Source: Gemmatimonadota bacterium
GTDB taxonomy: Bacteria; Gemmatimonadota; Gemmatimonadetes; Gemmatimonadales; GWC2-71-9
Assembly: GCA_037440225.1 (NCBI GenBank)
Contig: JBBIUN010000006.1
Location: 37,126 to 101,125, forward strand
Direction: 5' to 3'
Length of the DNA: 64,000 nt
This document shows, in pieces, positions 4,665 through 33,644 of this stretch. Under the pieces are notes generated by a model, which worked only from the letters and a program-made list of their open reading frames with translations, made no database searches and was not told the DNA's origin. The stretch's first letter is position 1; each line of letters begins with the position of its first letter. The translations under genes and the position numbers were made by a program.

Positions 4665-4737
<73 letters not shown>

Positions 4738-4742
4738 GGCAA

Positions 4743-4815
4743 AGCGGGCGACGGGACTCGAACCCGCGACCCTCAGCTTGGAAGGCTGATGCTCTACCAA
4801 CTGAGCTACACCCGC
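4743..4815 (-). tRNA. tRNA-Gly (anticodon TCC)
   Basis: Minus-strand cloverleaf of 73 nt. Acceptor GCGGGTG/CGCCCGC, D arm GCTC-AGTTGGTA-GAGC, anticodon arm TCAGC-CTTCCAA-GCTGA, T loop TTCGAGT. Confidence 0.9.
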
Positions 4816-4851
4816 GGAGACCCCGTTTCACCGGCTCGACCGGCCACTCCA

Positions 4852-4934
4852 TGGTGGGGGAAGGATTCGAACCTTCGTAGGCTAACGCCGGCAGATTTAC
4901 AGTCTGCTCCCTTTGACCGCTCGGGCACCCCACC
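4852..4934 (-). tRNA. tRNA-Tyr (anticodon GTA), long variable arm
   Basis: Minus strand, about 83 nt. Acceptor GGTGGGG/CCCCACC, anticodon arm GCAGA-CTGTAAA-TCTGC, long variable arm CGGCGTTAGCCTAC, T arm GAAGG-TTCGAAT-CCTTC. Confidence 0.88.
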
Positions 4935-5021
4935 GTTGCCCGCGCCGCTGCCGCCGGATGGGACCACCCCTCCTAGCCCCACGCCGTCCGTCCCACAAGC
5001 GCGCTCCCGCCCGGGTTACGG

Positions 5022-5094
5022 AGCTGACGAAGGGACTCGAACCCTTAACCTGCTGATTACAAATCAGCTGCTCTACCAGTTGAGCTACGTCAGC
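5022..5094 (-). tRNA. tRNA-Thr (anticodon TGT)
   Basis: Minus strand, 73 nt. Acceptor GCTGACG/CGTCAGC, D arm GCTC-AACTGGTA-GAGC, anticodon arm GCTGA-TTTGTAA-TCAGC, T arm AAGGG-TTCGAGT-CCCTT. Confidence 0.9.
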
Positions 5095-22724: not shown

Positions 22725-23579
22725 TCAGCGATGGATGACGTGACAGTTCTCGCATGCCGCGCCCGGATAGTGGGACGGGCTGAAGGTCCGGGGCAGCGGT
22801 CTTGCGCTCGAGGCTCGGGCCCAGGCCTCAGGTTCTGCAGCCGCGGCGGCGTTGTGGCAGCGGGCGCAGAGGAACGCCATCGCGGCATCCCGCAGGAGGA
22901 ATGCCTGCGGGGCACCGTGGAGCGCGTGGCAGTCGCCGCAGGAGGCGGCGCTATGCGCTTTCAATCCCGCCAGTTCCGGAGCGTGGCAGGATCCGCACCG
23001 GTCGAGCTGTTGGGCGGCCGAGACGACCTGCATGGTCGGGTCGTGAGGATCGTGACAGGCGGTGCACTCGATGGTGCCCGCCCGAGCCCAGGCTCCGGCT
23101 CCGGGAGCTTGCCAGGGGCGCGCTGCCGGAGCCAAGCGCCGCCCGGCGTGTGCGGCCCCTAGGGGGTGGTCGTCGGAGAGGTCGGGGCCGAGGTAGCGCC
23201 CGGAGCCCTGCGGCAGGCGGTCGGCATCCGGCTGGCGACGGCGCGTGGCCTCGTCGAAGTGACATCGGAGGCAGCTTTCGGTGACCGCTCCGGCGCCGGG
23301 GGCATCCACCGACAGCCAGGCGGTGGGCTGCCGTTCTCGTTCATCGGTTCGGAGGCTGTACTGGCCGGGCCGGCCCGGGTGGGATCGGTGGCAGGCGTTG
23401 CAGAACCCGGCGGGCGAGCCGCGCAGGACCGCGTGGCCGCCGCTGGGGCGCATCTCTTGGGCGGCGAGCCGGCCCGCTGTCGCCAACGCCGCGGCTGCCC
23501 ATGCCAGGCAGCGCAGCCGGGAACGCACCGCGGGGGAGGCGGTGCGCGGTGCCGTCGCGTTACGGGCGGGCTGCGGCAT
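22725..23579 (-). CDS. Heptaheme c-type cytochrome
   Basis: 284 aa with 7 CxxCH motifs: CNACH, CLRCH, CTACH, CGSCH, CGDCH, CARCH, CENCH. It has a hydrophobic signal-like N-terminus and the SDDHPL and CTACHDPH contexts also seen in the paired-CxxCH cytochromes of this locus. Confidence 0.85.
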   Translation of the reverse strand: MPQPARNATAPRTASPAVRSRLRCLAWAAAALATAGRLAAQEMRPSGGHAVLRGSPAGFCNACHRSHPGRPGQYSLRTDERERQPTAWLSVDAPGAGAVTESCLRCHFDEATRRRQPDADRLPQGSGRYLGPDLSDDHPLGAAHAGRRLAPAARPWQAPGAGAWARAGTIECTACHDPHDPTMQVVSAAQQLDRCGSCHAPELAGLKAHSAASCGDCHALHGAPQAFLLRDAAMAFLCARCHNAAAAAEPEAWARASSARPLPRTFSPSHYPGAACENCHVIHR

Positions 23580-24723
23580 CGGCCACGGGCGGTAGAGGCC
23601 CCACGAAGCCGTACACGGCGATCTTGCGTGGGCCGTATTGGTTGGTGACCCAGAGCAGATACTTGACCTCGAAGCCGGGCCGCGCGTACTGCCGGAAGTA
23701 GCTCACGTGGTCGTAGTCCACCACGACTTTGGCGGGCAGCACCATGTCCCCCGGCCCGTTGCCCGGCCCTCCGAAGAACATCAGGAGCCGTCCGTCGGGG
23801 CGAAACACCTGGACGTTCTCGAAGGCGGCATCAACCACATATACCAGGCCCTGGCGATCCACGGCCACGCCTTTGGGGCGCGTGAACGTACTCGGTCCCT
23901 GCCCCGGCCGGCCGATGGTTTGCACGTAGGCTCCCTCCGTGGTGTAGACCAGGACCCGCTGCTTGAGCATGTCGGATGCGTACACCCGGTGACCGGCCAC
24001 GTAGAGGTTGGCCGGAGCCGCCAGGCCGGCGGAGTCGGTGGCCGGGACGTCGGGGAAGTGGAACAGCGGCCGTCGAGTGGCCCGATCGTACACCCGCACC
24101 CCGAGTCCCGCTCCCAGGTGCGACACGTATATCCGCTCGCCGCTCACGAAGACGTCGGCGGGATTGCCGCCGTCTTCGTCGCCGAACGTCCCCTGGTAGC
24201 CGCCATCCGGGCCGTACACCACGACCTGCCTTCGGTGCAGGTCGGTCACATACAGGGTGCCGCGATCGTCCACGAAGCAGTTGGCCGGCCGCCGCAGACC
24301 GTGGGGATCTTTGGGCTGGAAGAAGGCGATCTCCCGGCGGGCCAGGTCCACCACGTCGAGACCTAGGATGTCCTGGTCGCAGACATAGGCCTTGCCGCGG
24401 TGCAGGGCCAGCCCGTAGGGCCGGGCGATGCCTTTGGCGCTGCGAGAGGGCCGCCCCACGATGCGGTCCAGCAGGGACGGTCCCTTGTCGGCAAGATCCA
24501 GCTCGGTGCTGAAGCTGGTCAGAAACTGGATGCGCGCCGTATCGGGCGGTGGTGGGTACACGGGGAGGTGCTCCGGTACCGGAGATCCGGCCCGCCCGCC
24601 GCAGGCCAGTGCCGCGACTGCCAGAGCGAAGGCTGCACCCAGCCGGGCACTGCGGAGGGCGGCCCTCGGGCTCTGGGGAGGAGCCTCGAGCGTTCTTGCC
24701 CGCGCCAGCCGCGTAACGTCCAT
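23560..24723 (-). CDS. NHL-repeat beta-propeller lipoprotein
   Basis: The track ORF starts at TTG 24750; ATG 24723 gives MDVTRLARAR.... Lipobox-like LAVAALAC. Repeated NHL-type units (RPANCFVDDRGTLYVTD, NPADVFVSGERIYVSH, RPKGVAVDRQGLVYVVD). 20-nt overlap with the heptaheme gene. Confidence 0.8.
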   Translation of the reverse strand: MDVTRLARARTLEAPPQSPRAALRSARLGAAFALAVAALACGGRAGSPVPEHLPVYPPPPDTARIQFLTSFSTELDLADKGPSLLDRIVGRPSRSAKGIARPYGLALHRGKAYVCDQDILGLDVVDLARREIAFFQPKDPHGLRRPANCFVDDRGTLYVTDLHRRQVVVYGPDGGYQGTFGDEDGGNPADVFVSGERIYVSHLGAGLGVRVYDRATRRPLFHFPDVPATDSAGLAAPANLYVAGHRVYASDMLKQRVLVYTTEGAYVQTIGRPGQGPSTFTRPKGVAVDRQGLVYVVDAAFENVQVFRPDGRLLMFFGGPGNGPGDMVLPAKVVVDYDHVSYFRQYARPGFEVKYLLWVTNQYGPRKIAVYGFVGPLPPVADAAARP

Positions 24724-24747
24724 GCGTCTTTGGCCTCTGGGACAAGG

Positions 24748-24775
24748 CAAGGGGCGGCCGCGCGGCCGCCCCTTG
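24748..24775 (-). terminator. 28-nt perfect GC-rich palindrome between the tetraheme and NHL genes (hairpin; attenuator or RNA-stability element?)
   Basis: The sequence caaggggcggccgcgcggccgccccttg equals its own reverse complement. It lies in the 81-nt intercistronic gap. No U-tract follows on the transcribed strand, so it is not a canonical intrinsic terminator. Confidence 0.35.
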
Positions 24776-24804
24776 GATCATCTCGAGCTAGGTCCGCCTT
24801 CCCA

Positions 24805-25440
24805 TCACTTGTTGTGGCACACCAAGCAGTTGGTGTCGTAGCCGGTGTAGGGCCGGAAGAACAACCCCGCCGTCCCCGGCTTGTGCGGGTCGTGGCAGGA
24901 ACCGCATTCCACCGTCTTGGTGCCTGTGCCGTACAGCCTCAGTCCGGCCGCAGCCACTTCGGTCGGCGCCCGCAGCCCGGTGTCCACCGTGTTGTCGTAG
25001 ACGATGCTCACCGGGTGATCATTGGACAGGTCCGTGCCGATCACGGCGTCCCCGGTCAGGTACTTGGGGATCGTGTCCTGGCCCGCGATCGTGCCGCCCA
25101 CCGCGTTGATCGCGGTCACCCCATCGTGGCAGCTCAGGCACGCCTTGGAGACGCCACTGGGCTGGCTGATGGTGTTGTCCAGGGTGCTGCTGCTGTACAA
25201 GGTGAAGGTTTGGGTGGTGAGGTCGTGGTTCCACAGTGGAGCGTCGGTGGACAGGGCGCTGTGGGCGGTGTGGCACGAGGAGCAGAGGCCGTACTTCTGG
25301 GTGACGGGATCCCAGAAGTTGTAGCTGCTCGACCCGTTGACGAAGTCGTGCTTGCTGCCGTCAATCTGGGCCCACACCCGCGGAGCCGCCAACGCCGCCA
25401 GTGCCAAGAGAGCGATCCAGCCCTTTGCGAGACGGTTCAT
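24805..25440 (-). CDS. Tetraheme c-type cytochrome (secreted)
   Basis: 211 aa with signal peptide MNRLAKGWIALLALAALAAPRVWAQ and 4 CxxCH motifs (CSSCH, CLSCH, CGSCH, CLVCH). It has SKHDF and SNDHPVS contexts. Confidence 0.85.
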   Translation of the reverse strand: MNRLAKGWIALLALAALAAPRVWAQIDGSKHDFVNGSSSYNFWDPVTQKYGLCSSCHTAHSALSTDAPLWNHDLTTQTFTLYSSSTLDNTISQPSGVSKACLSCHDGVTAINAVGGTIAGQDTIPKYLTGDAVIGTDLSNDHPVSIVYDNTVDTGLRAPTEVAAAGLRLYGTGTKTVECGSCHDPHKPGTAGLFFRPYTGYDTNCLVCHNK

Positions 25441-25531
25441 CTTCCTCCTCTCTCCTTTCGGTCGCGCTGCTGCAAGCAGCCGTACGGGGTCCCTGCGTAC
25501 TCCGAGCGAGGCCTAGTTTGCCATCCCCTGC

Positions 25532-25559
25532 TTGAAGGCGTGGTGAACCGTGGGTGAGA
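25532..25559. promoter_or_regulatory. Three hexamers phased at 11 bp (TTGAAG-n5-GTGAAC-n5-GTGAGA) in a divergent promoter region
   Basis: Read directly: hexamer starts at 25532, 25543 and 25554. The site is 92-119 nt upstream of the tetraheme start and 106-133 nt upstream of the hexaheme start. A related triple repeat lies at 31465-31492. Confidence 0.3.
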
Positions 25560-25664
25560 CGCAACTCACCGAGCGGCGACCTCTTGAGGCGCGCTTGAAT
25601 ACCGCTTCACGCCTGATTTAGCGATGAACCAAGCCGGAGGCAGTAGATTGGCGCACGGTGCGGT

Positions 25665-26570
25665 ATGCGGGCCAGACTCCGCGACATCCGGCTACTCTGC
25701 CAGGAGCATGCCAAGGGGGCTCTCCCCGCCGCCCTGGCGTTGCTTGCGCTCGGGGCCTGTGCCCGGGCCGCAGGCGTCCTGTTCGACCTTCCGCAGAACG
25801 CAGCACCGACCGCAGCGCCCGCGGCGCAGATTTCGCCCCCCGGCGTTCTGCGTGCGCCCGGCGCGCCGGATACCGCGAGGCCCCCTATTGAGGGGACCCT
25901 CGATCCGGACAGCACGCTCGCCCGCCTGCCCAGGCACGCCAACGGCGAGGTGGATTGGACCGCGGCGCTCGAGCAGGGGGTGATCCGGCCCCGCGACGCA
26001 GCTCCGGGGCTCGCACCGCCCGTCTATCTCGAGGGCTTCGGATACGACTTCGTTTTTCCGGGACCGGAACCCGATTTCGATGCCCGATTCCCGCACACCC
26101 GGCACAGCCCGTGGTTGGCCTGTTCCTCCTGCCACGGCGGCCTGATCCGCTACCGCGGCACTCCCATCACCATGGACCAAATTGCGAAGGGGGAATCGTG
26201 CGGCACCTGTCACGGCCCCGTAGCCTTCTCGCGAGAGGCCTGCGGGCGATGCCACCCCGGCATGCCGCCGGGCGAGTTCCGGGCCGAATTGAGCGACGAC
26301 ATCGTGCTGGCCCGGGCCGCCGACTCGGCGGGGGCCGCTGCCGCTTTCCCGCGCAGCCGGTTCGCGCACTGGGTGCACCGGATCCGGTACCGTTGCTCGG
26401 CGTGCCATGATGCCCTGTTTCCGATGCGCGCTGGCGCCGACACGCTGAAAATGGACGACCTCGCCGCGGGACGGAGCTGCGGGACCTGCCATAACGGGAC
26501 CTCTGCGTTCGGCCTGCTGGAGTGCACCCGGTGTCACGCGGCCTCCCGCCGCCAGGAGGGGGAGCGGTGA
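25665..26570 (+). CDS. Hexaheme c-type cytochrome lipoprotein (two c7-type triheme units)
   Basis: 301 aa with lipobox LALGAC and 6 CxxCH motifs arranged as two copies of F.H..H....CxxCH...M....G.sCGtCH....AF....CxxCH (CSSCH/CGTCH/CGRCH and CSACH/CGTCH/CTRCH). Confidence 0.85.
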   Translation: MRARLRDIRLLCQEHAKGALPAALALLALGACARAAGVLFDLPQNAAPTAAPAAQISPPGVLRAPGAPDTARPPIEGTLDPDSTLARLPRHANGEVDWTAALEQGVIRPRDAAPGLAPPVYLEGFGYDFVFPGPEPDFDARFPHTRHSPWLACSSCHGGLIRYRGTPITMDQIAKGESCGTCHGPVAFSREACGRCHPGMPPGEFRAELSDDIVLARAADSAGAAAAFPRSRFAHWVHRIRYRCSACHDALFPMRAGADTLKMDDLAAGRSCGTCHNGTSAFGLLECTRCHAASRRQEGER

Positions 26571-28483
26571 GGAGAGTGCTGGCGATCGCCGCGCTACTCG
26601 CGGCGGGACCTCGGGCCTTTCGGGCCCAGACGGTCTTCGTGTGGGATCGTTCGCGCAGCGAGGTGGGGGCCCGGGGGTCCGGCTCGAGCAGCGCGGAGGC
26701 CAGCCAGAACTCGGCACAGGGGTGGGTGAAGGTACGGGCTTATGGATCGCTTTTCAGCCCGGAGCTGTTGGCCTTCGGCATTGGGCTGCAGCCTGGCTTC
26801 ACCTGGACGCGCTATGCCTTCCCGCTGGGCGGGGGCGGGAGCGACGACCGGCTGCTGGGCACGGACGGGTACCTGGATCTCCTGCGCCACCGCGCGGTAT
26901 CCGGCTCCCTGCGCTGGCTTCGGCTCGCCCACGATCAAAACGGCCGGGGCGGCTACCTCGGCGACGCCACCGGCCGAAGCGCCACGCTCGAGTCCTCGCT
27001 TCGCTACGACAATCGCCTCATGCCGCTCCGATTCGAATACCGGGACGAGAGCTGGAGCCAGCAGTCGGTATTGGGAGGCGACGCGCAGCGCACGACGTCC
27101 TCCATCGAGAGCGTGCGTCTCTCGGGCCGGAACCGCAAGACCGGCTTCCAGCTCGAGCGGCGGGTCACCCGCGAGCCGGAGCCCCTTACCTACCGGCAGG
27201 CCGCGATCGAGAACCGGCAGAGTTGGGGCAAGGGCAGTCAATTCGAAGTCGTGGCCAGCGCGTTGGACCAGCGCAGCGTGCGGCTCGGGACGGCCTCGAA
27301 CACGCAGTGGGGGATGGGGCTCCACCTCCAGCACCTGCGCTCCGTCTGGAGCGACTGGTCGGTGGGCCGTTGGGGGAGCCGTGCGGGAGACCAGCGAACG
27401 GCCCGCACCGTAGCCAGTGGCGGAATCGGGGCCCAAATCTTGACCAACGTCACCGGTGGCATCGCCGGGAGCGTGGTCAGCACCCGCTACGATGGCTTGC
27501 AGGAAGTGAGCCGCCGCATCGAGTCGCGCCTGGCGGCGCGGGTGCGGTTGCCAGCCGGGGCCTGGCTCGGCGCATCGGCCTCCGCAGGGTACGAGCACCT
27601 CGCGATCTCTCGGGGCGAGGCCGCCTGGGTCACGGTGGTGGGCGAATCCCATCGGCCGGATGCCAGCGGGAGCTTCATCCTGAACCGGCCCGAGGTGGAT
27701 CCTGGCAGCATCTTGGTCACCGGGCCGGATGGCAGCGTGCTGGTCCGAGGATTGGACTACGACATCACCGAAGCCGCCGGCATCATACAGGTGGTTCTGC
27801 TCCCGGGAGCCCGGGTTGCGCCCGGGGCGCCGGTTGTCGTCAGCTACCGATTTCGGGTGGCCGCCACCGCGACGGCGCCGTCGTTCGTCGGCTCGTACAG
27901 CGCCGACTTGCAGATTCGCGGGCTCCGCGTCTACCACCGCGGCTTGATGCGCCACCCGCAGACCGAGCAAGCCGCGGATCCGGCCCTAGCCGGCGTGCCC
28001 GAGGTGGACTGGGTGACCACCGGCTCCCAGCTCGTCATCGCGAGCCGGCCGGTTCGCGCCACGGTGCAGGCCGAGCGGAACCGTCGGACCAATGCCGGAG
28101 TCCACGCTACGGTTTCTTCGGTGGGCGCGACCGTGGGCGCCTGGCCCCACCGCCGGGTCCGCGCATCCTTGCAAGGGGGATATCAACTCACCGAGGCGCC
28201 AGCCGGCGCGTACCGCCTCGCGACCGCCCGCTCCGCGGTGGAATGGCTACCAAGCGGGGCCTTGGTGCTCGAAGCAGCCTCGAGCGTCTGGCGCGCGCTC
28301 GAGCGAGACAGTGTGCGGCGGCGGGAGCTGGGGTTGGCCGGACGGCTCACCTGGCAGCCCGGGCTGCTGCGGGTCGTGGTGTCGTACCAAACCCGCGACT
28401 GGCGCGAGACGATCTTCATCGGGCCGGCGCCCCGCGCGGTGGGCAGCAGCCGCTGGGACATCGCCCTCATCCGTACGTTCTGA
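26567..28483 (+). CDS. Predicted outer-membrane beta-barrel protein (638 aa)
   Basis: GTG 26567 overlaps the hexaheme stop (GTGA) and is preceded by AGGAGGGGGAG. Signal peptide VRRVLAIAALLAAGPRAFRAQ. Many alternating-polarity strands rich in Y/W/R/G. The C-terminus is ...WDIALIRTF (terminal aromatic). Confidence 0.65.
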   Translation: MRRVLAIAALLAAGPRAFRAQTVFVWDRSRSEVGARGSGSSSAEASQNSAQGWVKVRAYGSLFSPELLAFGIGLQPGFTWTRYAFPLGGGGSDDRLLGTDGYLDLLRHRAVSGSLRWLRLAHDQNGRGGYLGDATGRSATLESSLRYDNRLMPLRFEYRDESWSQQSVLGGDAQRTTSSIESVRLSGRNRKTGFQLERRVTREPEPLTYRQAAIENRQSWGKGSQFEVVASALDQRSVRLGTASNTQWGMGLHLQHLRSVWSDWSVGRWGSRAGDQRTARTVASGGIGAQILTNVTGGIAGSVVSTRYDGLQEVSRRIESRLAARVRLPAGAWLGASASAGYEHLAISRGEAAWVTVVGESHRPDASGSFILNRPEVDPGSILVTGPDGSVLVRGLDYDITEAAGIIQVVLLPGARVAPGAPVVVSYRFRVAATATAPSFVGSYSADLQIRGLRVYHRGLMRHPQTEQAADPALAGVPEVDWVTTGSQLVIASRPVRATVQAERNRRTNAGVHATVSSVGATVGAWPHRRVRASLQGGYQLTEAPAGAYRLATARSAVEWLPSGALVLEAASSVWRALERDSVRRRELGLAGRLTWQPGLLRVVVSYQTRDWRETIFIGPAPRAVGSSRWDIALIRTF

Positions 28484-28636
28484 CACGTTCCGGCACCGGG
28501 CGGAGGCCCGCGGCGGCTGCCGCGACAGGGACTCCACTCATCTCTCATTGCAGTGCAGCCCGGCGCGAGCCACCGGGCACCGCGCCCGCCGGCGCTTCCG
28601 ACGAAACCCGTGGCTGGGGCGTTTTGACCAATCCGA

Positions 28637-30475
28637 CTAGAACCTGGTTCCGTGGTAATGGCAGGAGAAGCAGTTGGTCTTGGTGCCTCCCATGCTGCCG
28701 GTGTGGCAGGTATTGCACCACTTCCACCCGTTGACGGCGGTGTCTTTCACGTTGTTGTCCGTGATGGCGTAACTCCCACCTCCGTCGGGCGGGATGGGGA
28801 CGGTGCCGCTCTTGGAGTACACGGTATCCACCGCATGGAACAGGTTGCCCGAGACGTGCGCACGGTGGCAGGCCTCGCAGTTCATGAGGTCGCCCGCGCC
28901 CCATCCGTAGCCGCTCTTGAGCGTAGGGCTCCCGGTGGCCGCTCCCATGGCGTCGGTCGCGTGGGTGCTGCGCACGTTGGTTAGAGCCGTACTCGGCGGG
29001 GTGACCGTGGCGGGATAACTCCCGTCGTGACAATCCAGGCAGAACTCGGAGCGGAAGCTGACCCCCGCCATGACCTGTCCGGTTCCCGGCACGCGGCCGT
29101 CAGCGGGATCGGGATCGGTCTTCCAGGGCTGTGCGGCAGTGGCGCGGTGCGGGTCGTGACAGTCGGTGCACTCGATCTTAGCCCCGCTCGTGGTTTGGGC
29201 GGCGTACTGCACGTCGTGGCGGTCGTTCAGCCGCGTGTTGGCGGACGCTCCGACCGGCGCCGTGACCCACCGGACGGAGGTATTGAATTGGGCCGCCACG
29301 TTGGTCGCCGCCGGCCCGTTGCTGTCGTGGCAGTTGAAGCAGAACCCTTCTTCCTGCTCTGCGTTGGCGGGCGGGGTGGGCGCCAGGTCGGGGGGAGCCA
29401 GCAGCTTGCGTTTGAGCGAACCGTGCCCTGTGGCGTGGCAGCCGAAGGTGCCATCTCCGAAACAGCTGCGGTTGCCGGTCGCGTGCGCCGAAGTCGTCCA
29501 GGCCGCCGCGTCGATGGGGGGTCGGGTCACGCCGTCGCCGAATGGCACCAGGTTCCCGTCCGCCCCGTTGGCATCGTGACAGGCGAGGCAAAAGGCGGTG
29601 AGCTTGGCCGCTTGGGTGGAATCGGTGGCGGGGTTGCCAGCCAGCACGATGACCGAGTCGAGGTTCCCCGGGTAGTCCACGTTCCAGAGTCGCACCGAGC
29701 CTTGCTGGTGCCGGCTTTGGTCGTGGCACACCTGGCAGCGGGCCGCGGTCAGCGAATCGGGCGTGGGGACCTGGAGGTGATGGCTCGACCGGCTGAACTC
29801 GCCTACCACGGCGCGCCGCCCGCCCGGCGGGATGCCGTCGCCGTTGTCCTGGACCGTACTGTGGCAGTCGGTGCAGGTCCCGCTGGGCACGAAGCCGGCG
29901 TCGTGCCGGTGGCAGGTCTGGGTGCAGGTGCGGCCTGCCTCGTGCGTGTGATCGCCCTCGCTGGTATTCCGGTGATAGGCCGTTTGGGTGTGGCAGACCT
30001 CGCAGACGCCGTCGTAGACGCTGTCGCCGTCGGCGAAGGAGTGGGCCGTCGGTTGGCCGGCGTCCAGCCCCCGGCTTTCGAAGCGGACGCTCCGGCTCCC
30101 GCTGTGCGGGGTGACGATCACGGCGCGCACCAAGGCGAGATTGGTGAGGCCGGCGCTGTTGCGTTCGTAGTCGTGCGGGCTATGGCAGTCGGTGCACGTG
30201 GCCAGTTTGCCGCCGGCTTGGGTTTTGTGGACTTCGCGCACCGGGGCACCACCGCTGGGACTGTGACAGGTTTGGCAGAGCACTTCGCGCACCGCTTCCT
30301 TGGTCAAGTTCAGCCCCGGCGCCGTATGGACCTGGTGGCAGTTGGAGCAGGGGCTGTGCTGGCTGAAGAGCAGCAACGCCGGCAGGGCTCCGGCAGCCCC
30401 GGGCACGTGCGCGGCGGCTGCGGCGGCAGCGAGCGCTACCACGAGCCCCACCCCGAGGCGCACCGGCCGGGTCAT
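28637..30475 (-). CDS. Large multiheme c-type cytochrome (13 CxxCH plus 2 atypical motifs)
   Basis: Lies inside track ORF 28637..31048. ATG 30475 overlaps the upstream NHL stop (ATGA) and gives 612 aa with signal MTRPVRLGVGLVVALAAAAAAAH. Canonical CxxCH motifs: CSNCH, CQTCH, CTDCH, CEVCH, CTDCH, CQVCH, CLACH, CFNCH, CTDCH, CLDCH, CEACH, CNTCH, CFSCH. Atypical motifs: CTQTCH and CFGDGTFGCH. Confidence 0.85.
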   Translation of the reverse strand: MTRPVRLGVGLVVALAAAAAAAHVPGAAGALPALLLFSQHSPCSNCHQVHTAPGLNLTKEAVREVLCQTCHSPSGGAPVREVHKTQAGGKLATCTDCHSPHDYERNSAGLTNLALVRAVIVTPHSGSRSVRFESRGLDAGQPTAHSFADGDSVYDGVCEVCHTQTAYHRNTSEGDHTHEAGRTCTQTCHRHDAGFVPSGTCTDCHSTVQDNGDGIPPGGRRAVVGEFSRSSHHLQVPTPDSLTAARCQVCHDQSRHQQGSVRLWNVDYPGNLDSVIVLAGNPATDSTQAAKLTAFCLACHDANGADGNLVPFGDGVTRPPIDAAAWTTSAHATGNRSCFGDGTFGCHATGHGSLKRKLLAPPDLAPTPPANAEQEEGFCFNCHDSNGPAATNVAAQFNTSVRWVTAPVGASANTRLNDRHDVQYAAQTTSGAKIECTDCHDPHRATAAQPWKTDPDPADGRVPGTGQVMAGVSFRSEFCLDCHDGSYPATVTPPSTALTNVRSTHATDAMGAATGSPTLKSGYGWGAGDLMNCEACHRAHVSGNLFHAVDTVYSKSGTVPIPPDGGGSYAITDNNVKDTAVNGWKWCNTCHTGSMGGTKTNCFSCHYHGTRF

Positions 30476-31437
30476 GGCTTGCCTCCCAGCAGGTAACGCT
30501 CGATGCGCGCGGTCTTGTAGCTGGTGACCAAGGCTTCGCCTCCCGGGGTCACGACCACGTCGAGGGGCAGGAGGAGCTGCCCCGGCCCGTCGCCGAAACT
30601 GCCCAGGGTCCCGACCCGCGCCAGCGTGCTGCGGTCGAACGCCAGCACCTGACCCAAGAGGCCATCCACCAGATACACCCGTCCCTGGGCGTCCAGCGCG
30701 ACACCCTGGGGGCGCGAGAAGCCGCCGGTGCAACCCAGCATCCCGCAACTCCCCTTGCCGGAAACCGCCGCCACCAGGTGACCCTGGTAATCGAGGATCT
30801 TGAGGCTCGCGTACTCGCCGGCGGCGAGATCGCCGTAGTCGCTCACCAGCACCTGCTGCTGCGCCGAGTCCACTGCAAGGCCCGTGGGATGCCGCAACCC
30901 ACCGAGGGAGCCTCGCGGGCGGCCCTGGTAATCGAATACCTGAACGCTGCCTCCCTTGCCGTCCGCCACAAAAACCAGCTCGCGGGAGGCGTCCACATCC
31001 AGGTCCACCGGATCGCGCAGCAGCCCGTGGCCAAATTCGAAGCGCCACCGCCCGCTGGGGCTGAACACGTCCACCACGCTCCGGCTGGCGTTGCCCACGA
31101 AGATGTGGCCACCGGCCGCCGCGAGTCCCACCGCATGTCCCCGGACCGGGAGCGCACCCACCGGCGCCAGGGAACTCGGGTCCAACCTCACCACCGCCGC
31201 TCCGAAGTAATCGCTGACGAGCAGACTGCCGTCGGGCGTGCGCGCCAAGCGCACGGGGGAGCTGAGTCGGGAGGCAGCACGACTCCAGGCGAGGCGAAAG
31301 CCGAGGTCCGCCGCGGTGGGCGACTCGCTCCCGGCCGATCCCAGCCGTTCATCGCACCCCCAGGTGAGCCCGGCGGCAGCCAAAGCCAGGGCCGCGAGCC
31401 AGCGGATGGGGGACGGACAGCGCGGCGATAGCCTCAT
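30472..31437 (-). CDS. NHL-repeat beta-propeller lipoprotein
   Basis: 321 aa with lipobox LTWGC and NHL-like units (SPVRLARTPDGSLLVSD, DPVDLDVDASRELVFVAD, HPTGLAVDSAQQQVLVSD, RPQGVALDAQGRVYLVD). Confidence 0.8.
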   Translation of the reverse strand: MRLSPRCPSPIRWLAALALAAAGLTWGCDERLGSAGSESPTAADLGFRLAWSRAASRLSSPVRLARTPDGSLLVSDYFGAAVVRLDPSSLAPVGALPVRGHAVGLAAAGGHIFVGNASRSVVDVFSPSGRWRFEFGHGLLRDPVDLDVDASRELVFVADGKGGSVQVFDYQGRPRGSLGGLRHPTGLAVDSAQQQVLVSDYGDLAAGEYASLKILDYQGHLVAAVSGKGSCGMLGCTGGFSRPQGVALDAQGRVYLVDGLLGQVLAFDRSTLARVGTLGSFGDGPGQLLLPLDVVVTPGGEALVTSYKTARIERYLLGGKP

Positions 31438-31656: not shown

Positions 31657-32325
31657 ATGCGCATCCTCATCGTCGAAGACGACCCGCAGCTACGCGAGAT
31701 CGTCGCCACCGCCCTCCGGGAGGAGGGCTACGAAGTGGTCACGGCCTCCTCGGTTCGCGAGGGGCGGGAGCGGGCCGTGTTCGGGGCGTACGGGCTCTTC
31801 ATCTTGGACATCATGCTTCCCGACGGGAGCGGCGTCGAGCTGTGCGCCGCGCTGCGCGATGCGGGAATCGCCACGCCGGTCCTGTTGCTCACCGCCCGGA
31901 ACACGGTGGACGACAAGGTCGCGGGGCTGGATGCCGGAGCGGACGACTATCTGCCGAAGCCGTTTGCGCTGCGCGAGCTGTCCGCCCGGGTCCGGGCGCT
32001 CCTGCGCCGTCCGCCCTCGGTGCAGCCCTCGGTCGCCCGCATTGCCGACCTCGAGGTGGACCTCCGCAGCCGCCGCGTGCGGCGTGCCGGCCGGGACATC
32101 GCGCTGACCGCCAAGGAGTTCGCCCTGCTCGAGTGCTTCGTGCTGCACCGGGATGCCGTCCTCGACCGGGCCACGATCACCGCCCACGTGTGGGACGAGA
32201 ACCACGATCCCTTCACCAATACGCTCGAGGTCCTGGTCCGGCGGCTGCGGCAGAAGATTGACGACGACTTTGCCCCCAAGCTGATCCACACCGTGCGCGG
32301 CGCCGGATACCGGTTCGGCCCCTGA
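31657..32325 (+). CDS. OmpR/PhoB-family response regulator
   Basis: 222 aa with a receiver domain (MRILIVEDD..., LFILDIMLPDGSG, ...DDYLPKPF) and a winged-helix C-terminus (...LTAKEFALLECF...IHTVRGAGYRFG). Confidence 0.93.
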   Translation: MRILIVEDDPQLREIVATALREEGYEVVTASSVREGRERAVFGAYGLFILDIMLPDGSGVELCAALRDAGIATPVLLLTARNTVDDKVAGLDAGADDYLPKPFALRELSARVRALLRRPPSVQPSVARIADLEVDLRSRRVRRAGRDIALTAKEFALLECFVLHRDAVLDRATITAHVWDENHDPFTNTLEVLVRRLRQKIDDDFAPKLIHTVRGAGYRFGP

Positions 32326-33644
32326 TGGACCCCCTCAAGCGCCTCCGCCTGCGGCTGACCGCCTGGTACGTGGGGACGTTCACGGTGGTGTTGGTGTTGC
32401 TCGGCTCGGGACTGTTCATCGCGCTGTCGGGCCAACTGTCCGGGGACCTGGACCTGCGGCTCGAAACGGCGGTGGCGGCGGTGCGCCGCACGATGGACGT
32501 CCGGGCGGCCTTCGGCACCGCACCGGAGCAGGCCCTGCGCGAGGCCGTGGCGGAAAACGCGGGGCCGGAGCGCTTGCTCTATCTCTTCGATGGAGCGGGC
32601 AAACCCCTCATCGCACCCAACCCCGTGGATCCGCGCATCGCGGCGGCAGCGGTGGACGCGGTCAACGAAGAGGATGCCGTGAGCGACGAATTCCGCACCT
32701 CCAGCCGCCAGCGCTGGAGGCTCTACGCGGAGCCGATTCTCTTGGGCGACGGCCAGGGCTTCGCCCTGGTGGCATTGGCCGACGCCACCGGATTCCAACG
32801 CCAGTTCAGCCGCCTGGTCCAGACGTTCATCGCCGCCGCGCTCCTCGCCTTGCTCCCGGTGGGCTTGGGCGGCTATCAGATCGCGCGCGTGTCGGCAGCG
32901 AGCGTGGAGCGGGCCATGGAGCGGTTGCGGACGCTCACGGCAGACGCGGCGCACGAGCTGCGGACGCCGGTATCCGTGATCCGGGGTCACGCCGAGCTGG
33001 CGATCCAACGGGAGCGCGATGCCGCATCCTACAGCGCCGCCCTGCAACAGATCGCCGCGGAAGCCCAACGCCTGGGCCAGCTCCTCGACAACCTCCTGAT
33101 GCTCGCCCGCGCCGAGGCCGGCGAGCGGCCCAGGCAACGCCGCCGGCTGTTCCTCGACGACCTTGCCGATCAGGCCGTGACCAGCGCCGCGGTGCTCGGC
33201 ACCGGGCGCGGCGTCCGCGTGTCCCTGGGACGGTTCGAGGAAACCCCCGTCGTCGCCGACCCGGACCTGTTGAGGCAGATGCTCATGATTCTGTTGGACA
33301 ACGGCATCAAGTTCACGCCCAGCGGCGGATCGGTCCAGGTGCACGTGTTCACCGAGCAGCATCATCCGGTGCTCGTGGTCGAGGACACCGGCATCGGGAT
33401 CGCACCCGAACACCTGCCGCACGTCTTCCAGCGATTCTACCGGGGAGATCGCAGCCGAAGCGGCGTGCCCGGAGCCGGGCTGGGATTGGCCATCGCCCGG
33501 TGGATTGCCGATCAGCACGACGCCACGATCAGCATCCACTCGGCGCTCGATCACGGTACCCGCGTCGAGGTCCGATTCCCCCCTCCCCCCGCACCGCCAT
33601 CCGAACAGCCACCAGCAGCCACAGCGCCAAGCAGCCAGGCCTGA
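32325..33644 (+). CDS. Sensor histidine kinase
   Basis: 439 aa with two N-terminal TM segments, the H-box DAAHELRTPVSVIRG, and N/G boxes (LLDNGIKFTP, VEDTGIGI, GAGLGLAI). The start overlaps the regulator stop (TGATG). Confidence 0.9.
   Translation: MDPLKRLRLRLTAWYVGTFTVVLVLLGSGLFIALSGQLSGDLDLRLETAVAAVRRTMDVRAAFGTAPEQALREAVAENAGPERLLYLFDGAGKPLIAPNPVDPRIAAAAVDAVNEEDAVSDEFRTSSRQRWRLYAEPILLGDGQGFALVALADATGFQRQFSRLVQTFIAAALLALLPVGLGGYQIARVSAASVERAMERLRTLTADAAHELRTPVSVIRGHAELAIQRERDAASYSAALQQIAAEAQRLGQLLDNLLMLARAEAGERPRQRRRLFLDDLADQAVTSAAVLGTGRGVRVSLGRFEETPVVADPDLLRQMLMILLDNGIKFTPSGGSVQVHVFTEQHHPVLVVEDTGIGIAPEHLPHVFQRFYRGDRSRSGVPGAGLGLAIARWIADQHDATISIHSALDHGTRVEVRFPPPPAPPSEQPPAATAPSSQA

Follow-up and report, generated by a model that had tools for sequence, protein, structure and literature searches.

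The question raised by this locus is why a beta-propeller gene and a multiheme cytochrome gene stand side by side twice within a few kilobases of a Gemmatimonadota chromosome, and what the propellers do for the cytochromes. The DNA concerned, called the window hereafter, is a stretch of 64,000 nucleotides (contig JBBIUN010000006.1 of assembly GCA_037440225.1, positions 37,126 to 101,125), a segment of chromosome with a GC content of 69%. An earlier note on this sequence had described two pairs, each made of an NHL-repeat propeller lipoprotein and a multiheme cytochrome, had read them as a duplicated two-gene module and had deduced from this a dedicated partnership between propeller and cytochromes. 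All the open reading frames (ORFs) that it named are present at the same coordinates. The two pairs are not duplicates. Both belong to a single cassette of seven genes for extracellular electron transfer, of the OmcE-nanowire/Uet type (22725-31437), in which an OmcE-like subunit and a large barrel are encoded together with two propeller lipoproteins and the multiheme cytochromes CYT13, CYT6 and CYT7. Its genes, with the names used below, are as follows.

NHL1, 30472..31437, (-): six-bladed NHL beta-propeller of 321 amino acids, probable lipoprotein (LTWGC), first in its propeller-cytochrome pair
CYT13, 28637..30475, (-): secreted multiheme cytochrome of 612 amino acids, with 13 CxxCH motifs plus one CX3CH and one CX7CH
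OMP, 26567..28483, (+): predicted outer-membrane beta-barrel of 638 amino acids, about 28 strands; the longest ORF starts at 26522
CYT6, 25665..26570, (+): hexaheme cytochrome, two c7-type triheme domains, predicted to be a lipoprotein (ALGAC), gene coupled to that of OMP
CYT4, 24805..25440, (-): OmcE-like tetraheme cytochrome, putative nanowire subunit
NHL2, 23560..24723, (-): NHL/DUF5128 beta-propeller lipoprotein of 387 amino acids (AALAC)
CYT7, 22725..23579, (-): heptaheme cytochrome of 284 amino acids with seven CxxCH motifs, an N-terminal OmcE-like domain and three C-terminal hemes

The first pair proved to be widely conserved. One genome per GTDB species was scanned with the NHL1 motif FSRPQGLAV, which returned 28 loci, and the species-representative loci closest to the window belong to Gemmatimonadota metagenome-assembled genomes. 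The window's own lineage, represented by L001 and L002 (proteins 91-98% identical), was excluded from all pairing counts. Outside it, 25 of 27 NHL1-family genes have, next downstream and in the same orientation, an ORF with 3-15 heme motifs, the remaining two having at most 400 nt of sequence left. The two genes share a 4-nt start/stop overlap in 22 of the 27. In the window, the coupling reported before is confirmed as an ATGA at 30472-30475 in which the NHL1 stop and the CYT13 start overlap, with GGGAGG 6 nt upstream. The lineages that carry the pair are Gemmatimonadota, Aminicenantes, Terriglobia, Nitrospirota, Nitrospinota, Myxococcales, Acidiferrobacterales, an alphaproteobacterium and Desulfuromonadales. 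Since the pairing is conserved across at least seven named phyla, at protein identities of 30-45%, the adjacency of NHL1 and CYT13 is not due to chance. NHL1 itself scores 64.9 bits (E=4e-18) against Pfam NHL (PF01436), for which the gathering cut-off is 20, and matches the NHL domains of TRIM71 and Thin in the PDB, solved as six-bladed propellers, at E of about 1e-15. Its family comprises about 109 clusters, in which the motifs FSRPQG and SDYGD are invariant.

In several genomes the NHL1-CYT13 pair stands alone, in that the neighbouring sequence retrieved contains no OmcE homolog, and in L003 it is duplicated as a unit, in tandem. A few kilobases upstream of these tandem pairs (L003, 1-4887) lies a set encoding a molybdopterin oxidoreductase, a 4Fe-4S protein and an NrfD membrane subunit, together with a c7-like cytochrome; it is possible that this oxidoreductase set links the module to the quinone pool.

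The cytochrome of the first pair had been called a 13-heme protein. It does contain 13 CxxCH motifs, and this number is a lower bound because two non-canonical sites align with CxxCH in orthologs. The first, CTQTCH (CX3CH; 29909-29926, minus strand, CYT13 residues 184-189), corresponds to a plain CxxCH in eight of eight aligned orthologs, and the second, CFGDGTFGCH (CX7CH; 29435-29464, minus strand, residues 338-347), to a plain CxxCH in L005 and L019. CYT13 may accordingly be predicted to bind up to 15 hemes, and its CX7CH site might need special maturation. The N-terminal 200 residues or so form a pentaheme core common to all partner cytochromes of the NHL1 family. These partners range from 204 amino acids with five hemes to 740 amino acids with 11 hemes, the 11-heme forms occurring in Aminicenantes, and the core is always kept. 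Its closest solved relatives in profile comparisons are MtrA (6r2q_A, E=8e-13) and OcwA (6qvm). An identity as an inner-membrane NapC/NirT quinol dehydrogenase, for which PF03264 gave 26.3 bits, barely over its cut-off, was ruled out: PF03264 is found in none of seven orthologs, the 204-amino-acid minimal forms included, and the profile leads to MtrA and OcwA. An OmcE-like domain within CYT13 was also rejected, as hhalign gave merely a 35-column heme-motif match. Ahead of the fourth heme motif of the core, a conserved acidic loop, SFADGD(EDGDG)xYDG (29990-30040, minus strand, residues ~146-162), looks like a Ca-binding loop; the protein of the window has its short form.

The second pair has a different history. 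NHL2 is recognised by Pfam DUF5128 and NHL (31.2 bits for the latter, cut-off 20) and matches the NHL domain of TRIM71 in the PDB (E=7e-36). Outside the window lineage, the gene directly upstream of an NHL2-family gene is OmcE-like in 13 of 13 instances, and a CYT7-type gene follows NHL2 in none of the 13. The adjacency of NHL2 and CYT7 is restricted to the window's own lineage; in every other genome examined, other Gemmatimonadota included, the CYT7-type gene follows the barrel gene. The earlier idea of a dedicated partnership therefore holds for NHL1 and the CYT13 family and has to be redrawn for NHL2, whose partner is the OmcE-like gene upstream and not CYT7. By its full-length alignment, NHL2 is orthologous to the propeller encoded after omcE in Desulfuromonadia: it is 30.5% identical to the Geothermobacter protein over 347 residues (E=4e-40), and both share the N-terminal linker PxYxPPxPDxxRxQ(F/Y)LT(S/G)F. 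The 20-nt overlap between NHL2 and CYT7 that had been described is present provided that CYT7 starts at the ATG at 23579; an alternative GTG 17 codons downstream would instead leave a gap of about 31 nt, and no clear ribosome-binding site is found at either start candidate.

The partner of NHL2 is an evident homolog of a solved nanowire subunit. CYT4 matches the Geobacter sulfurreducens OmcE filament (7tfs_A) at E=3.7e-26 and the OmcE of D. soudanensis (9yuq) at E=3.3e-17, and in the alignment with OmcE all four CxxCH motifs and all four distal histidines (in KHD, CHTxH, NDHP and CHDPH) coincide. The motifs KHD, CxxCHTxH, CLSCHDG, LSNDHP, ECxSCHDxH and the C-terminal CLxCHxK are invariant in a 16-sequence alignment of the family. 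The CYT4 ATG is preceded by GGAGG at 5-6 nt.

The heme contexts quoted in the earlier note (CTDCHDPH, CTDCHSPH, CTACHDPH, LSDDHP and LSNDHP) were all found, and the DDHP/NDHP likeness of CYT7 and CYT4 reflects true homology. Residues 53-204 of CYT7 (22968-23423, minus strand) form an OmcE-like four-heme domain, which hhalign aligns with the whole mature OmcE family (probability 98.9%, E=3.8e-17); direct comparison with CYT4 by BLASTP gives E=4e-10. The three C-terminal hemes are MtrA-like in sequence. According to a 2025 preprint, omcE operons encode no candidate for the base or tip of the filament (bioRxiv 10.1101/2025.10.22.684050). With its OmcE-like domain, CYT7 is a candidate adaptor for the base or cap (tip) of the filament, which we put forward as a lead and not as a result.

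The barrel belongs to no Pfam family. Exhaustive HMMER searches at E<=1e-3 recovered 265 representatives at 50% clustering, nearly all of 630-660 amino acids. A word-index search had yielded three relatives, and the AF2 model built on the resulting four-sequence alignment was unusable (pLDDT 40.9); with a 61-sequence alignment, AF2 returned about 28 long antiparallel strands at a pLDDT of 90.4 and a pTM of 0.77. A small beta domain, confidently predicted, is inserted between strands 17 and 18 (residues 354-430, ~27626-27856). Foldseek matches include TonB-dependent receptors and MtrB (6r2q_B) with a probability of 1.0, yet at a TM of about 0.3, and the protein ends in ...IRTF, with Phe as its last residue. 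On the predicted model, OMP is a large outer-membrane beta-barrel of an uncharacterised family. Its gene overlaps that of CYT6 by 4 nt, with the start as called in L001. CYT6 carries two stretches that match TIGR04257 (nanowire_3heme, E=6e-36) and also matches Pfam Cytochrome_C7 (E=3e-25); a lipobox is present in seven of nine orthologs. The N-terminal ~120 residues of CYT6 are heme-free and conserved (IDWVAA...FPHSxH).

Comparison across phyla shows how these parts are ordered. The canonical arrangement is a propeller, termed A, with a long cytochrome, and then, as a second group, the OmcE-like gene, an NHL2-type propeller, a small cytochrome, the barrel and a further cytochrome, termed C. 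It is seen in the Gemmatimonadota loci L010 and L017 and within the blocks of L015, and in L034-L036, which include Caldithrix and Kapabacteria; in L033 (Thermoanaerobaculia) the same parts occur in a variant order. In the window, CYT6-OMP is inverted and placed between CYT13 and CYT4. This relocation brings CYT7 next to NHL2, so that the second "pair" is a lineage-specific by-product. The inversion also accounts for a divergent region of 224 bp between CYT4 and CYT6 (25441-25664) and a convergent gap of 153 bp between OMP and CYT13 (28484-28636).

The propellers themselves were classified with phmmer, using 57 propeller ORFs taken from 36 related loci. Proteins of the NHL1 type reach 80-260 bits against NHL1 and 20-77 bits against the other types; for those of the NHL2 type, the figures are 230-356 bits against NHL2 and 27-56 bits against NHL1. 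To judge by these sequences, NHL1 and NHL2 are different, anciently diverged propeller families. In the cassettes found outside Gemmatimonadota (Geothermobacter, Caldithrix and Kapabacteria), the place of propeller A is taken by a member of a third family, NHLa, whose partner cytochrome contains an OmcE-like domain. There are thus at least three distinct propeller families, each of which keeps its own cytochrome neighbour, in a pairing that is conserved, specific and often translationally coupled.

Several described systems bear on the interpretation of this cassette. In a preprint on minimal omcE clusters, a barrel and a propeller lipoprotein are used as criteria for genuine nanowire loci (bioRxiv 10.1101/2025.10.22.684050), and the Geothermobacter locus has its omcE-cluster parts between resB/ccsB and the barrel, as published for such clusters. 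The window shares with the omcE cluster of Desulfuromonadia an OmcE-like tetraheme protein with all ligands, two propeller lipoproteins, a large barrel and two or more additional multiheme cytochromes. Of the two window propellers, only NHL2 has an ortholog among those of Desulfuromonadia, namely the propeller after omcE; NHL1 does not belong to the family of the upstream propeller of Geothermobacter. The accessory cytochromes also differ (13-15-heme, c7 hexaheme and heptaheme here, 24-heme and 8-heme there), no glycosylation island is present here, the gene order is rearranged, and Gemmatimonadota are not among the five phyla listed in the preprint.

The Uet cluster, known from Ca. Tenderia electrophaga and some Gallionella, encodes an extracellular tetraheme protein (UetA), a predicted 28-strand barrel (UetC), c7 triheme cytochromes (UetD/E/G), NHL proteins (UetH/I) and an undecaheme cytochrome (UetJ) after UetI (bioRxiv 10.1101/2022.05.06.490989; PMC10734462). 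By these descriptions it resembles the window in its tetraheme protein, 28-strand barrel, c7 triheme cytochromes and two NHL proteins, one of which directly precedes a long multiheme cytochrome. That cytochrome has 11 heme sites in Uet and 13-15 here, and the heptaheme cytochrome is additional here. A peptidyl-prolyl isomerase of the UetB type and a cupredoxin of the UetF type have no ORF between 21.7 and 34 kb of the window, nor do they figure in the Pfam annotation of L001.

Two multiheme clusters of D. ferrophilus IS5, DFE_0448-0451 and DFE_0461-0465, contain one NHL propeller each, proposed to stabilise an outer-membrane cytochrome complex (PMC5815863; PMC9769857). The likeness, as described, lies in multiheme clusters that each include an NHL-repeat propeller; unlike here, no OmcE-like subunit or large barrel is reported in the descriptions of these clusters. 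In the osc (omcS-companion) cluster of G. sulfurreducens, a beta-propeller-like protein, OscD, is linked to nanowire morphology (PMC13194489, which cites Shen et al. 2025). By description, both osc and the window place a nanowire-subunit gene amid channel-like, chaperone and propeller-like accessory genes. The subunit here is of the OmcE type and not the hexaheme OmcS, and the window lacks a peptidyl-prolyl isomerase. Reportedly, Shen et al. in 2025 assigned the osc accessory proteins to folding, secretion and morphology. Among the cytochromes searched against the PDB, no match to OmcS (6ef8) is better than E=0.7, CYT6 having been scanned against Pfam and NCBIfam only. As for the MtrCAB and Pcc conduits, they too have a multiheme gene before, and coupled to, a large barrel gene; MtrA-like sequence is found in the core of CYT13 and in the C-terminal part of CYT7, and MtrB is among the matches of the OMP model. 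The window differs in a barrel of about 28 strands (26 in the conduits), in its propellers, which Mtr lacks, and in its outer cytochromes, which are not lipoproteins, the predicted lipid anchors being carried by the propellers and the c7 cytochrome instead.

Given the published D. ferrophilus, Uet, omcE and osc cases, the association of propellers with cytochromes was already known, and its function has merely been proposed. The earlier statement that the role of such propellers is not established still holds experimentally. The locus is a further member of a known OmcE/Uet cluster type, and the main result is its correct annotation, not a new kind of system. What is new is the extension of this cassette type to Gemmatimonadota (named together with OmcE in a single paper in a full-text literature search), Acidobacteriota, Caldithrix (Calditrichota) and Kapabacteria. 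To this are added the recognition of at least three propeller families, each with its own cytochrome neighbour and with one pairing coupled by 4 nt across phyla, and the flagging of the heptaheme CYT7, with its OmcE-like domain, as a candidate adaptor of the filament. Within the nanowire machinery, the beta-propeller lipoproteins form a conserved yet unexplained component.

What, then, do the propellers do? The best explanation of the whole, which we consider probable with a moderate degree of confidence, is an OmcE/Uet-type cassette whose propellers act as docking or assembly partners of their cognate cytochromes. The propellers would be lipid-tethered and non-catalytic, one for each cognate cytochrome, and each would bind its anchorless secreted cytochrome and, at the outer-membrane barrel, position or stabilise it. 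For NHL2 the target would be the OmcE-like filament subunit, in its polymerisation or its anchoring, and for NHL1 the long heme-rod cytochrome, in a complex of about 1:1. The distribution of predicted lipid anchors is consistent with this division of labour: they are found on the propellers and on CYT6, with a lipobox nearly universal in the NHL2 family, and on none of the CYT13, CYT4 and CYT7 families. Members of the CYT4 and CYT7 families, like the long cytochromes, have signal peptides only, and a lipobox is found in none of 21 proteins of the CYT13 family. The propeller alignment shows no conserved His/Cys cluster and no conserved metal- or cofactor-binding residues, its invariant positions being those of the NHL blades together with FSRPQG and SDYGD.

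Some observations weigh against this explanation. A lipobox is missing in about half of the NHL1 orthologs (Aminicenantes, Nitrospirota), so that tethering is not a universal role. The lipobox of the window NHL1 is itself atypical, with W at -2, many orthologs having canonical ones. NHLa replaces NHL1 elsewhere, which means that the two-propeller hallmark is filled by different families in different phyla. Finally, OMP and the Geothermobacter barrel share no similarity at the BLAST level.

The main rival holds that the propellers are transient periplasmic chaperones for folding, maturation or quality control, or else filament-shaping factors. This account is possible, if distinctly less probable. 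It draws on the osc accessory proteins, which are assigned to folding, secretion and morphology, OscD affecting morphology (PMC13194489), and on the omcE preprint, in which secretion, nucleation, anchoring and assembly of nanowires are stated as open questions (bioRxiv 10.1101/2025.10.22.684050); the dispensability of the lipobox in half of the NHL1 family also fits it. However, the 4-nt coupling retained across at least seven phyla fits stoichiometric co-production better, and the matching of one propeller family to each cytochrome family speaks for a recognition that is specific and stable, although neither point is decisive.

A wider reading, which joins three parts and is rather doubtful as a whole, makes of the propeller lipoproteins cytochrome-specific adaptors of a chaperone-usher-like assembly of heme wires. 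NHL2 would pass OmcE-like subunits to the 28-strand barrel, CYT7 would be the base or cap adaptor of the filament, and NHL1 with its pentaheme-core cytochrome would form an autonomous, unnamed two-protein electron-transfer module present in at least seven phyla.

It is unlikely that the propellers are substrate-, mineral- or metal-binding, or catalytic, heads for which the cytochrome serves as the electron wire, after the manner of other redox enzymes with a beta-propeller or of the SGL/lactonase-like fold. Mineral binding was among the suggestions of the earlier note, and weak Pfam matches to SGL, DUF5128 and arylesterase-like propellers point the same way. There is also a precedent: BtuG is a propeller lipoprotein that binds its ligand atop the BtuB barrel, and the BtuG-BtuB entry 8blw is among the Foldseek matches of OMP. 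Yet the SGL scores lie under the Pfam cut-offs, the absence of conserved metal or cofactor residues from the family alignment speaks against such a head, and the hosts of the cassette differ widely in lifestyle.

The reading from which the question arose, namely that this genome holds a duplicated propeller-cytochrome module whose pairs are paralogs with the same job, is very improbable. As read from the ORFs, the propeller does come first and the junction is tight in both pairs, both propellers are NHL proteins, and module duplications do exist elsewhere. These cases show what a true duplication looks like: the tandem propellers of L003 are 45% identical and their cytochromes 39%, and the two five-gene blocks of the Gemmatimonadota locus L015 are 27-49% identical over whole lengths. 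The alignments that had been proposed as a check reveal no such paralogy in the window. Over 168 residues, NHL1 and NHL2 share 29% identity (E=4e-9), a level typical between any two NHL propellers, and their cross-scores of about 35 bits compare with 150-350 bits to their own orthologs. CYT13 and CYT7 share a 43-residue heme-motif match, and profile-profile comparison aligns only 70 columns around a paired-CxxCH motif. The position of CYT7-type genes behind the barrel elsewhere also argues against a duplicated unit. A fortuitous clustering of secreted-protein genes, for which nothing speaks but the general abundance of NHL proteins in bacteria, is the least credible account of all, given synteny and overlaps conserved across phyla at 30-45% identity and given that L030 and L031, remote NHL genes from the same scan, have no multiheme neighbour.

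The surroundings of the cassette add a few minor features, annotated as follows.

31657-32325, (+): OmpR-type response regulator, from the Pfam annotation of the near-identical L001, divergent from NHL1
32325-33644, (+): histidine kinase, from the same annotation, divergent from NHL1
4665-5094, (-): cluster of four tRNA genes (Thr-GGT, Gly-TCC, Tyr-GTA, Thr-TGT), from the tRNA scan

According to the Pfam annotation of L001, the cassette has a pirin gene and an ABC transporter at one end, and the response regulator and the histidine kinase at the other. In L033, L034 and L036, a histidine kinase paired with a sigma54 response regulator is encoded inside the cassette or next to it, and this recurrence in other phyla suggests dedicated regulation; it is possible that the two-component pair at 31657-33644 regulates the cluster. 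A scan for promoters and terminators gave no signal above chance, and Rfam and tRNA scans found nothing besides the distant tRNA cluster. This cluster, far from the locus, marks an ordinary chromosomal setting and has no bearing on the cassette.

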